From: a virus
Direction: 5' to 3' (one strand)
Virus record (IMG/VR): IMGVR_UViG_3300022682_000042
Span: 1-64,000 of that record
DNA: 64,000 nucleotides
Numbering within the stretch: position 1 is the first letter of the stretch; every line of letters begins with the position of its first letter. The notes beneath the pieces are model-generated. The model made no database searches. It was not told the DNA's origin and was given only the letters and a program-made list of their open reading frames with translations. Shown piece after piece: positions 6,488-8,575 of this stretch. The position numbers were made by a program, and so were the translations under genes.

Positions 6488-6627
6488 CCCCTACCCTACG
6501 CACGTGTAGGGAAATCGCAGGCATATTCGGTTTGTTCCCCTGCTCCACGCCCGTGTGGGGAAACCACTCAAAAACTGACTACCACAAAATACTATACTCC
6601 CCTGCTCCACGCCCGTGTGGGGAAACC
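6488..6627 (-). CRISPR. CRISPR mini-array A: 2 identical plus 1 degenerate 29-nt repeat, spacers 33 and 20 nt
   Basis: GGTTTCCCCACACGGGCGTGGAGCAGGGG at 6599-6627 and 6537-6565; 23/29 copy at 6488-6516; begins 18 nt after the tnpB stop. Confidence 0.85.
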
Positions 6628-6645
6628 CCTTAAATGGCCTAAGTA

Positions 6646-7965
6646 TTAGAGCGTAGATTCACCGTCAACGTTTGACCCTATGGCCTGCGTTACCGACGGT
6701 TCTTTTAAGTCCGACCCAGGTAGTACCGGACTATAATTTAATTGTTTAAGAGCCTCATTCTTGATATTTACTGCTGCGTTACCGTCTCTATGGTGGTTTA
6801 TACCACATTCAGGACAAGTCCATTCACGAATAGCCAGAGTCAAATTAGCATTGATATAGCCACAATTCGAGCAAGTTTTGCTTGATGGAAACCATCTACT
6901 AATAGGAATGATAATGCCACCATTCCACCCTGTTTTATATTCAAGTTGCCGGCGTTTTTCGTAAAGGGCAGCGTCGCTAATTGCCTGAGCCAGTCGATGA
7001 TTTTTCACCATTCCTCTCAGATTCAAATCTTCAATCCCGATAATTTCATAGCTACTGGCTATATCTGTAGTCAACTTATGAGAAGCGTCTTGCCTGATGT
7101 TAGCTATTCTGGCGTGAAGTTTTGTAATTTGTCTCTCTGTTTGCTTTATTTTGTTAGAGACAATCCAGTTTTTTGCACCTTTTTTGACCGTGCCATTCTC
7201 ATTGAAGTTTTCTGGGTTATTAGCCCGGCGCTGTCTATCAAGCTTTCTTTGCAATCGTCTTAATTTAGCCTGAGCTTCTTTCAGTGCCTTTGGATTTTCA
7301 TAAAACACACCATCACTGGTAACAGCCAGGTATTTAATACCAAGATCAACCCCAACGGCATCATCTAATTGTGGCTGATTGTGAATTGTCTCAACCTGTA
7401 CTGATAACCACCAATCTCCATGTCGATAGCTAATTCTTGCTCCTAATATTTTACCATCAAATCTTAGCTCTTCGGTCATATTGACCCAACCAACTCGGCC
7501 TTTATCGAATTGTACGTTATAGTCATCAAACTTTAGGGCCGTATTTGCTAAATAAAAAGCGGGGATTGACTTTTGTTTAGACTTGAAACGGGGCCAACCA
7601 TTGGGTTTACCGTCTTTGCGGGGTTTGTCGGCTTTAGGTAGTAATCCGTTTTTGCGTTTATGAAAGAAATTTCTAAAAGCAGATTGAAGGTCATCAAAAG
7701 CACCTTGACTTGCCCATGTTGTAACGTCATTAATCCAATTTGGTTTGACTTGATTAAATCGTTTCTTGAGCCATCGCCCGTTGACTGGAATAGTATCACC
7801 AATCCCGGCTTGCTTAACTTGCCAATTGTAATCAGAAAAAAAGTTCCACTCGGCAAGTCCCCAGTTAAAGGTATATCTTGCTATCCCCGCGGCTTGCCAA
7901 AAATATTGTTCTTGGTCAGGAGTTGGATTCAGTTTTATCCTGTGGGCCTTCGTTACTGTTTTCAA
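6646..7965 (-). CDS. tnpB: TnpB/Cas12f-like RNA-guided endonuclease with intact RuvC
   Basis: N-terminal OrfB-type HTH; GVDLG, IEDL, HRDGNAAVNI catalytic motifs; CSNC/CPEC zinc finger; TTG start after AGAGGA. Confidence 0.92.
   Translation of the reverse strand: MKTVTKAHRIKLNPTPDQEQYFWQAAGIARYTFNWGLAEWNFFSDYNWQVKQAGIGDTIPVNGRWLKKRFNQVKPNWINDVTTWASQGAFDDLQSAFRNFFHKRKNGLLPKADKPRKDGKPNGWPRFKSKQKSIPAFYLANTALKFDDYNVQFDKGRVGWVNMTEELRFDGKILGARISYRHGDWWLSVQVETIHNQPQLDDAVGVDLGIKYLAVTSDGVFYENPKALKEAQAKLRRLQRKLDRQRRANNPENFNENGTVKKGAKNWIVSNKIKQTERQITKLHARIANIRQDASHKLTTDIASSYEIIGIEDLNLRGMVKNHRLAQAISDAALYEKRRQLEYKTGWNGGIIIPISRWFPSSKTCSNCGYINANLTLAIREWTCPECGINHHRDGNAAVNIKNEALKQLNYSPVLPGSDLKEPSVTQAIGSNVDGESTL
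6649..6732 (-). ncRNA. Putative tracrRNA/omegaRNA-like scaffold A overlapping the tnpB 3' end
   Basis: Hairpin with loop UACUACCUGGG, hairpin ACCGUC..GACGGU, anti-repeat UCUACGCUC pairing 9/9 with repeat GGGCGUGGA. Confidence 0.7.
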
Positions 7966-8101
7966 TTTCTATCCTCTGCTTATCTAAATACTGACGAACT
8001 GCCCGACGTACGCTCTCGGCAAGTGGTATGCCATCCCTATCTTTTAGCTTTTTCAAGGCACGATATAGATTATTATCAAGCCTCATTTGACGTTGTTTCA
8101 T
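7916..8101 (-). CDS. Ribbon-helix-helix regulator (leaderless start)
   Basis: QMRLDNNLYRALKKL..IPLAESVRRAVRQYL; ATG 6 nt after the -10 box. Confidence 0.75.
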   Translation of the reverse strand: MKQRQMRLDNNLYRALKKLKDRDGIPLAESVRRAVRQYLDKQRIEIENSNEGPQDKTESNS

Positions 8102-8136
8102 ATTTGTATTATAATACAAATGTATACATTAGTCAA
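8087..8136. promoter_or_regulatory. Overlapping divergent promoters sharing a palindromic -10 region
   Basis: Plus TTGACG(8087)-17-TATAAT(8110); minus TTGACT(8136)-17-TATAAT(8113); 20-bp palindrome 8102-8121. Confidence 0.8.
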
Positions 8137-8137
8137 A

Positions 8138-8221
8138 CTCGCTGTACTACCTGGGCAGAGAGGATAAACGGGCCATCGCTAACCCTTAGCATAAGCGGGG
8201 TTGATGGTCAACCACGTGCCT
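8138..8221 (+). ncRNA. Putative tracrRNA-like scaffold B upstream of array B
   Basis: Same loop UACUACCUGGG, hairpin GGCCAUC..GAUGGUC, anti-repeat CCACGUGCCU pairing 10/10 with repeat AGGCGUGUGG. Confidence 0.7.
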
Positions 8222-8237
8222 TATAAACCGAATATGA

Positions 8238-8575
8238 GTATACCCCACAGGCGTGTGGAACAGGGGAACTTACCAGACTGGCCGGCAATTCCTGGCCAGC
8301 GTATACCCCACAGGCGTGTGGAACAGGGGGGACCGGGCCAGGAAGCACAACTAATCCAGGTGTATACCCCACAGGCGTGTGGAACAGGGGAATGTCCACG
8401 ATGGAAACCACGACGTTAAAGAAGTATACCCCACAGGCGTGTGGAACAGGGGGACTTTGGCCGGCAACCGATAACAGAGCCGGGCGTATACCCCACAGGT
8501 GTGTGGAACAGGGGTAATCACTACATAAAGTAGCCATAAGGAGTTGGTATACCCCACAGGTGTGTGGAACAGGGG
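8238..8575 (+). CRISPR. CRISPR array B: six 29-nt repeats, five spacers (34, 32, 33, 33, 32 nt)
   Basis: GTATACCCCACAGG(C/T)GTGTGGAACAGGGG at 8238, 8301, 8362, 8424, 8486, 8547; unique spacers. Confidence 0.96.

Follow-up and report, generated by a model that had tools for sequence, protein, structure and literature searches.

A phage TnpB nuclease gene flanked by two divergent repeat-spacer arrays: a probable RNA-guided module at the boundary between transposons and CRISPR

The IMG/VR virus record IMGVR_UViG_3300022682_000042 is an 82.5-kilobase (kb) genome rated complete by CheckV, and the stretch of DNA analysed here (the window) is its first 64 kb (positions 1 to 64,000). The window contains a block of about 2.2 kb, located between the prohead-protease gene and the scaffold-protein and capsid genes, in which a gene encoding the nuclease TnpB lies between two arrays that resemble clustered regularly interspaced short palindromic repeats (CRISPR). 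The minus strand of the block carries two genes, one encoding a ribbon-helix-helix (RHH) protein and then tnpB. The core of the block (approximately 6650-8230) has a G+C content of about 40%, compared with about 55% in its surroundings. The following features were found, in window coordinates (nt, nucleotides; aa, amino acid residues):

5201-6484: prohead-protease gene (Pfam Peptidase_S78_2)
6487-6626, minus strand: left (tnpB-downstream) array, three units
6627-6742, minus strand: scaffold A, omegaRNA-like, overlapping the last ~32 codons of tnpB
6646-7965, minus strand: tnpB, 439 aa, TTG start, with RuvC residues D207, E312 and D394 and zinc-finger residues C365, C368, C384 and C387
7916-8101, minus strand: gene for an RHH protein of the CopG type (domain RHH_1), 61 aa with the ATG at 8101 as start
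8087-8136, both strands: divergent, overlapping pair of promoter-like sites, each matching 11 of 12 consensus positions
8128-8237, plus strand: scaffold B, a further copy of the scaffold without a gene, followed directly by the right array
8238-8575, plus strand: right array, with five unique spacers (32-34 nt) between six repeats of 29 nt
8632-8690, plus strand: two terminator-like hairpins with T runs, 57 nt past the last repeat

The TnpB protein sequence shows matches above the cut-offs to the Pfam domains HTH_OrfB_IS605 (PF12323), OrfB_IS605 (PF01385) and Cas12f1-like_TNB (PF07282), in the order helix-turn-helix, OrfB_IS605 (RuvC) and zinc ribbon. It scores 282 bits against a cut-off of 100 with the NCBIfam model guided_TnpB and stays under the cut-offs of the NCBIfam IS200, IS607, C2c8 and Cas12f2 models. 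Residues D207, E312 and D394 align with positions 191, 278 and 361 of ISDra2 TnpB, which we take to be its catalytic residues, and these three residues together with the four zinc-finger cysteines are invariant in all 24 aligned homologues; the RuvC triad is intact. ISDra2 TnpB is also the best solved natural match, over the full length of the protein (E 6e-55), although the AI-designed nuclease 9YYG scores higher. The matches to LaTranC (residues 200-408, E 7e-31) and to a Cas12n-type solved chain are limited to the RuvC half. The closest homologues include four at 65-75% identity and five at 57-63%; the only named homologue comes from an Anaerolineae genome.

No match to Y1 TnpA (PF01797) or to serine recombinase (PF00239) was found across the whole 82.5-kb genome, with positive controls. 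The gene is present in a single copy, the other tnpB of the genome being only 29% identical, and no hairpin plus TCAA-type transposon end occurs before the flank of the module. Classification as an IS200/IS605 or IS607 transposon was rejected on these three grounds, that is, neither TnpA nor serine recombinase, one copy and no canonical ends. Likewise, Cas1 (PF01867), Cas2 (PF09827) and Cse3-type Cas6 gave no match in the whole genome, and the control genomes were positive; adaptation genes of the cas1/cas2 kind are not required for orphan or type V-U arrays. The original prediction, made from the window sequence, had proposed a 439-aa TnpB with three RuvC acidic motifs and a zinc finger, lacking tnpA and lacking cas1, cas2 and cas6 in the window. 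The protein assignment is borne out by the Pfam matches, the ISDra2 alignment and the homologues, and the absence of these genes, with Cas6 searched as the Cse3 type, now extends from the window to the complete genome.

For a CRISPR array we considered at least three near-identical direct repeats of 23-47 nt with unique spacers of similar length between them. The right array shows all of these properties, whereas the left array has three repeats but one full-length spacer. The repeats of the right array start at 8238, 8301, 8362, 8424, 8486 and 8547, and its spacers measure 34, 32, 33, 33 and 32 nt, in this order; the four promoter-proximal repeats are identical and the last two share one C-to-T change. 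On the minus strand, the left array consists of a repeat (6626-6598), a 33-nt spacer (6597-6565), a second repeat identical to the first (6564-6536), a 20-nt stretch (6535-6516) and a degenerate repeat (6515-6487) which matches at 22 of 29 positions and abuts the stop codon of the protease gene. Between the tnpB stop and the first repeat of this array there are 18-19 nt; the smaller figure corresponds to a repeat length of 30 nt and the larger to one of 29 nt. The two arrays lie in opposite orientation and their repeat families are identical at 22 of 29 positions. A search of the 82.5-kb genome for the repeat core gave six forward matches, all at these arrays, and the reversed control pattern gave none. 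The two arrays are thus as the original prediction had described them: a three-repeat array 18 nt behind the tnpB stop, a six-repeat array upstream on the other strand, 29-nt repeats with 22 identities, and variant repeats (the last two on the right, the degenerate one on the left) distal to the central promoter. A single array split by insertion was rejected as their origin, given that the arrays are inverted and the repeats differ at seven of 29 positions. An Rfam search at E up to 1 over 6000-9000, which included the CRISPR-DR families, gave no match.

The 20-nt stretch of the left array (6516-6535) has 12 nt in common with the end of scaffold B (8225-8236). The distal unit of this array resembles what would be left of a repeat and a B-type scaffold end in front of it, which suggests that the two inverted arrays once recombined or underwent inversion with each other. 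In the right array, spacers 1 (8267-8300) and 4 (8453-8485) show a similar core of about 16 nt, with 13 identical positions and an offset of 8-9 nt, and spacers 1 and 2 (8330-8361) have a 9-nt stretch in common as reverse complements; the targets of spacers 1, 2 and 4 may be related.

A profile-based scan of IMG/VR recovered two TnpB proteins at 55% identity, at loci here called L174 and L175. Downstream of the TnpB stop in L174 come the 12-nt loop block that the window scaffolds also contain and a scaffold with high similarity to scaffold B. The array that follows comprises 29-nt repeats, two of them identical and a third degenerate, separated by spacers of 32 nt; the degenerate repeat is followed by a partial one, with which the array ends. 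The L174 repeat is a diverged version of the window repeat. The L175 contig ends 47 nt past the TnpB stop, where the first stem-loop is already present. Of the two relatives with at least 55% identity and readable DNA, L174 therefore has both scaffold and array, and repeats related to those of the window are found beside a homologue, which the original prediction had named as a check of its proposal. A search of the L174 phage record (54.7 kb) with the window capsid protein gave no match, and by this marker the two phages are not closely related.

The approximately 110 nt ahead of the first repeat are homologous between both arrays, repeats excluded. Scaffold A shows a stem-loop 1 (loop UACUACCUGGG), a long stem 2 and a linker with a possible anti-repeat of 9 base pairs (bp), and represents a structured guide-RNA scaffold that overlaps the 3' end of tnpB. 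Scaffolds A and B share an identical 12-nt block within the stem-loop. Local alignment scores, without the repeats, were 19 between A and B, 16 between A and L174, and 37 between B and L174. Shuffled sequences (2000 shuffles per comparison) scored about 8.5-8.8 with a standard deviation of about 1.6 (8.8 ± 1.65 for A and B), and reached the observed score in 1, 6 and 0 cases, respectively. Pairing in stem 2 is kept through changes on both sides, and stem-loop 1 shows compensatory changes in four of seven pairs across the four sequences available (A, B, L174 and L175). Its paired cells amount to 89%, in comparison with 59% in shuffles (0 of 500 reach the observed value) and 25-50% when the partners are slid. 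Scaffold plus first repeat measures about 130-145 nt, the size of canonical scaffolds in relatives.

The scaffold is also visible in the proteins of the clade. In the closest homologues the C-terminal tail corresponds to scaffold A read in frame 1 (PVLPGSD...), and the tails of other homologues match its other two frames (KRLNGNAGQR versus KRTVGNAGHR, and PYYLGG versus RYYLGR). Matches in shifted frames are the pattern expected of a conserved RNA. A covariance model of 23 canonical omegaRNAs from more distant relatives matches the core helix of the L174 scaffold with 16 bits (rough E ~0.012). On sequence grounds the scaffold is the omegaRNA of the clade itself and not a generic CRISPR leader. 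Comparison of the scaffolds by blastn and nhmmer with 160 relative loci returned only chance words of 12-14 nt, and a covariance model (R1) built from three sequences recovered only its training sequences and the repeats in 100 sources (768 kb). Repeat A aligns at about 19 of 26 positions with the terminal hairpin of a canonical omegaRNA in the tail of another locus (L066), whereas repeat B does not align; that the repeat corresponds to the terminal hairpin of canonical omegaRNAs is only a lead. In addition, a hairpin after a gene end at L180:4080-4115 (IMGVR_UViG_3300037067_001259) has a loop which resembles that of stem-loop 1 (ACTACCTGGC); no TnpB was found within the 4.5 kb of this contig that were examined.

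A metagenome scan with the single TnpB protein returned only relatives at 40% identity or less. Among viral contigs, neither the exact two-family repeat core nor the motif of stem-loop 1 plus stem 2 was found. The stem-loop 1 motif alone occurs in four viral contigs, the L174 contig and three others which gave no TnpB match and in which the motif reads in frame as WYYLGRE. A relaxed repeat pattern also occurs in four viral contigs, and only the L174 contig has at least two copies. As a background rate, 149 more distant TnpB loci, each with at least 250 nt of downstream sequence and without removal of duplicates between collections, included nine with a downstream direct-repeat pair within 700 nt. 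By reading, three of these nine appear to be repeat-spacer arrays (L050, L084 and L174), and the rest tandem duplications or two-copy cases. At L084:4950-5500 (IMGVR_UViG_3300021255_001644), where the TnpB is 37% identical over a partial match, an array of about nine units with a 31-33-nt repeat and spacers of about 33 nt lies about 240 nt after the end of the gene, and this locus is another phage-borne TnpB with an array. At L050:5260-5420 (IMGVR_UViG_3300032038_000146), with a TnpB of 30% identity, the last ~36 nt of the scaffold occur three times downstream, with stretches of 30 and 18 nt between them, and this looks like an omegaRNA-end mini-array.

The end of the RHH gene overlaps the start of tnpB by 50 nt. 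Its product, scored as a 67-aa form, matches RHH_1 with E 3.4e-5 and 24.1 bits against a cut-off of 20.5. The two promoter-like sites are TTGACG-17-TATAAT on the plus strand (8087-8115) and TTGACT-17-TATAAT on the minus strand (8136-8108), and both -10 boxes lie within a perfect palindrome of 20 bp (8102-8121), likely the operator of the RHH protein. The predicted minus-strand start is approximately at the RHH ATG, which predicts a leaderless transcript, and scaffold B begins about 6 nt past the predicted plus-strand start. The hairpins at 8632-8690 probably end the transcript of scaffold B and the right array. Between the last repeat and these hairpins there is another promoter-like sequence, TTGACA-17-TATCAT (within 8592-8690, plus strand), from which any transcript would run into a terminator about 10 nt or less from its start; the site may serve the late genes as an attenuator, or the match may be due to chance.

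We interpret the locus as a phage-borne RNA-guided nuclease module derived from TnpB, at the boundary between transposons and CRISPR like TranC, Cas12r and the type V-U systems, and give this reading a probability of roughly 0.68. The arrays are tied to the nuclease by the shared scaffolds, by the overlap of scaffold A with the 3' end of tnpB, by the L174 scaffold with its co-diverged repeat, and by the agreement of polarity, promoters and terminators. The variant and degenerate repeats are promoter-distal, and each guide would follow its repeat on the 3' side, the arrangement of TnpB and type V systems. Judged on these features, the arrays belong to the TnpB and are not accidental neighbours of its insertion.

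The module would make two RNAs: an mRNA of the RHH gene and tnpB which ends in scaffold A and two or three repeat units, and a divergent RNA which starts at scaffold B, runs through the six repeat units and stops at the two terminators. In each RNA, the scaffold and first repeat would amount to a full omegaRNA guided by spacer 1. In the repeat-spacer units that follow, only the guide-proximal 29 nt are retained; these units would probably use the scaffold in trans, possibly by the 9-10-bp linker:repeat pairing, or alternatively act as CRISPR RNA (crRNA) alone, as in Cas12r. TnpB loaded with a guide would cut matching DNA beside a target-adjacent motif. Binding of the RHH protein to the palindrome over both -10 boxes would set the levels of nuclease and guides, and RNA polymerase would occupy one of the two divergent promoters at a time. 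The most likely use would be conflict with other mobile elements or related phages, with homing ranked second. A more specific history is also possible, although we regard it as doubtful: CRISPR arrays may have been born here from omegaRNA in an otherwise ordinary TnpB clade, whose other members carry the same scaffold sequence in their tails. The 29-nt repeat would be the multiplied guide-proximal end of the scaffold, and the scaffold would have been duplicated as a separately promoted, stand-alone omegaRNA array under an RHH switch with mutually exclusive promoters. If so, the locus would be among the earliest and smallest multiplexed intermediates and a tractable case for the entry of spacers into arrays without Cas1-Cas2.

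Several observations weigh against the interpretation as an array-guided TnpB module. The array was seen in only one independent relative, L174. A TnpB of this size normally needs the whole scaffold, and guides 2 to 6 may be idle. The canonical omegaRNA covariance model gives no hit in scaffolds A and B, nor in the ordinary locus of the second tnpB of this phage, and its reach is therefore short. In the minimum-energy folds, part of the linker forms a helix with the central portion of the repeat (9 bp in A, 10 bp in B), and each linker suits the repeat of its own array. Shuffled linkers, however, pair at least as well in 0.19 (A) and 0.055 (B) of trials, and L174 lacks a linker:repeat helix at the equivalent place. 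A role of this predicted pairing as an anti-repeat like that of a trans-activating crRNA (tracrRNA) is a lead, and a search for anti-repeat duplexes over larger regions gave only loose pairings driven by G+C content. Furthermore, the window spacers show no target: no match at E up to 1 in the cultured-phage collection, none for 20-mers of two spacers among the viral contigs, and nothing beyond 12-13 nt in their own genome and the fetched loci. Spacer 2 of L174 matches its own phage at 25 of 26 positions, at a distance of 1.5 kb and with mismatches at both spacer ends (L174:2768-2793 and 4356-4387). The matched site covers a terminator hairpin as well as the region where a 544-aa gene starts, and the homology stops at the spacer borders. 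This match fits guides aimed at related phages, and it fits equally a homing device that remembers its insertion flanks.

Such a selfish homing or maintenance device, in which the repeats would be duplicated right-end segments and the spacers captured insertion flanks, and in which TnpB would promote copying of the module into co-infecting relatives by cutting their empty sites, we consider unlikely. It agrees with the canonical role of TnpB, described in the part of bioRxiv 10.64898/2026.03.27.714800 available to us as cleavage of the empty donor site, and omegaRNA-like arrays have been raised as a possible alternative means of guide capture (Altae-Tran 2023, PMC10691335, in the section available). 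At the locus, each array ends with a repeat directly bordered by phage DNA, and a guide from this terminal unit would lead to the insertion flank; the low-GC module (~40% versus ~55%) sits in a structural operon beside another low-GC gene of homing type; and L174 spacer 2 is similar to an equally oriented site that lies 240 nt outside the opposite end of its module. The spacers, however, are uniform and CRISPR-like in length (32-34 nt), the homology of L174 spacer 2 does not continue past the spacer, and the genome contains neither a transposase nor a second copy. No relative with an empty site was found in a search of cultured phages, which gave nothing above 34% with the capsid protein and nothing full length with the protease. 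The possibility that the module is partly a dead relic, in which only scaffold, repeat and first spacer work and the further repeats are neutral products of slippage or recombination, seems quite unlikely to us. It would account for the single full spacer of the left array, the scaffold-B-type linker fragment in place of its second spacer, the degenerate and partial repeats at the end of the L174 array and the weak anti-repeat support, and two inverted arrays flanking a gene invite rearrangement. Against it, the four proximal repeats of the right array are identical, the two distal ones carry the same single change and the five spacers are distinct and even in length; moreover, a Cas12r repeat of similar length works without any tracrRNA, according to the available part of bioRxiv 10.64898/2026.04.20.719267.

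Very unlikely, in our opinion, is a coincidence in which a transposon-derived tnpB landed between two type I-E-like mini-arrays that serve the host Cascade and not TnpB. The repeats of 29 nt, spacers of ~32 nt and period of 61-63 nt do resemble type I-E, and the repeats read on the opposite strand fold slightly better, with G-U pairs replacing C-A mismatches. On that strand, however, 4-5 nt follow the hairpin, and not the 8-nt handle that is a feature of type I-E; the degenerate repeats, the promoter and the terminators all indicate the opposite direction. The scaffold homology extends to the first repeat in both arrays and in L174, and the repeat co-diverges with TnpB in the L174 phage, which has no detectable homologue of the window capsid. 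No such array was found among species-representative genomes: a strict 20-base repeat-core pattern, searched in one genome for each of 185,579 species, gave five single hits, all at the same place in one conserved, open-reading stretch with no repeat units nearby, which we read as a putative GntR-type regulator gene. Viral mini-arrays that carry host repeats and target related viruses are well known (PMC11656645, as far as its available text goes), and insertion of tnpB near an existing array is a route left standing in the available section of Altae-Tran 2023 (PMC10691335).

The kind of system proposed here is already known, and the locus is another lineage of that kind. The original prediction of a domesticated, multiplexed RNA-guided nuclease holds in that the arrays, by their scaffolds, by L174 and by their polarity, appear to belong to TnpB; its description as a candidate new system is not supported, as Cas12r, CauTranC9, the TranC clades and the V-U groups have been published. 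According to the part of Altae-Tran 2023 (PMC10691335) available, about 50 independent transitions from TnpB to Cas12 have been inferred, with arrays mostly downstream and cas1/cas2 often absent, and arrays originate either by duplication of an omegaRNA segment or by insertion near an existing array. What sets the window locus apart is the second scaffold, duplicated without a gene and followed by an array of its own, together with the putative RHH switch and a protein that is very close to TnpB.

TranC systems are transposon-CRISPR intermediates (Jin et al., Cell 2025, as summarised in PMC13565253 and bioRxiv 10.64898/2026.03.27.714800). In the portions of these sources available, they share with the window locus a TnpB-sized nuclease, a short array and the lack of cas1/cas2, and some occur in phages; the proposed source of the repeat is the right-end RNA of the transposon, in its 3' part, and the scaffold has a tracrRNA-like role. 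CauTranC9, for example, is TnpB-sized, is encoded in a tailed-phage genome and has five repeats, with native spacers that match phages (bioRxiv 10.64898/2026.03.27.714800, same portion). The repeats given there for clades 3, 9, 11 and 20 measure 32-38 nt, compared with 29 nt in the window. Furthermore, the window TnpB matches LaTranC in the RuvC half only and ISDra2 TnpB at full length, and the window has two arrays, each with its own scaffold copy (one of them detached from the gene), plus an RHH regulator.

Cas12r of the Thermus Lalka phages has a strikingly similar layout, with a TnpB-like gene, a 15-bp gap, degenerate 29-bp repeats and spacers of 31-33 nt. It also lies in the structural module beside the capsid gene, with no cas1/cas2 described in the part of PMC11437467 available, and its spacers are aimed at other mobile elements (bioRxiv 10.64898/2026.04.20.719267; PMC11437467, both as available in part). 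The repeats of Cas12r and of the window both start with GTTTC and contain TGGAG. Cas12r, however, has 564 aa in comparison with 439 aa, it has one array and no RHH gene where the window has two arrays and an RHH gene, and it is reported to use crRNA alone, with 26 nt of repeat and 18 nt of spacer (bioRxiv 10.64898/2026.04.20.719267, available portion). Membership of the window protein in Cas12r was rejected, the best BLASTP match with LalCas12r having an E of 0.084 over 44 residues.

With canonical OMEGA TnpB (ISDra2; IS200/IS605/IS607) the locus shares the domains, the catalytic residues and a scaffold that overlaps the 3' end of the gene, and the L174 scaffold keeps core omegaRNA motifs. It differs in that the window tnpB is a single copy without a transposase, and in that its scaffold runs into repeat-spacer units and not into the hairpin plus TCAA-type end found in relatives and in the second tnpB of the same phage. 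Viral mini-arrays that use host Cas proteins are likewise short and carried by phages without cas genes, and the L174 spacer resembles a related phage; their repeats are identical to those of host arrays in the available part of PMC11656645, whereas the window repeat is tied to the TnpB scaffold. Pairs of RHH/MazE and TnpB (Altae-Tran 2023, PMC10691335) also have a small RHH gene directly upstream of tnpB. In the section of that source available they are archaeal, with a rearranged catalytic site, read as toxin-antitoxin and mentioned without arrays; the window triad is canonical and its RHH gene lies at a palindromic promoter shared with an array.

If the arrays feed TnpB, the window would encode a naturally multiplexed effector of 439 aa, smaller than Cas12r and most Cas12f, with a defined layout of scaffolds and promoters. 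The two scaffolds driving two arrays, compared with one in the relative, would offer a comparative series for the routes of RNA splitting and of omegaRNA-segment duplication. Together with Cas12r, there would then be two unrelated lineages in which phages maintain a module of this type within their head-gene cluster.

The second tnpB of the phage lies outside the window (~67430-68520, minus strand; locus L008), and its product is 29% identical over residues 199-411. Neither a repeat array nor an A/B-type scaffold was found at this locus. Its 3' end is of the ordinary omegaRNA type, a hairpin followed by TAGTTGAC (a GTTGAC-type end), and it provides a within-phage contrast to the array-bearing tnpB. 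A second low-GC island (35-42%) lies directly 3' of the capsid gene and contains a gene for a 268-aa HNH endonuclease (10934-11740, minus strand; Pfam HNH_3 and HTH_17) with an N-terminal helix-turn-helix, which looks like a free-standing homing endonuclease.

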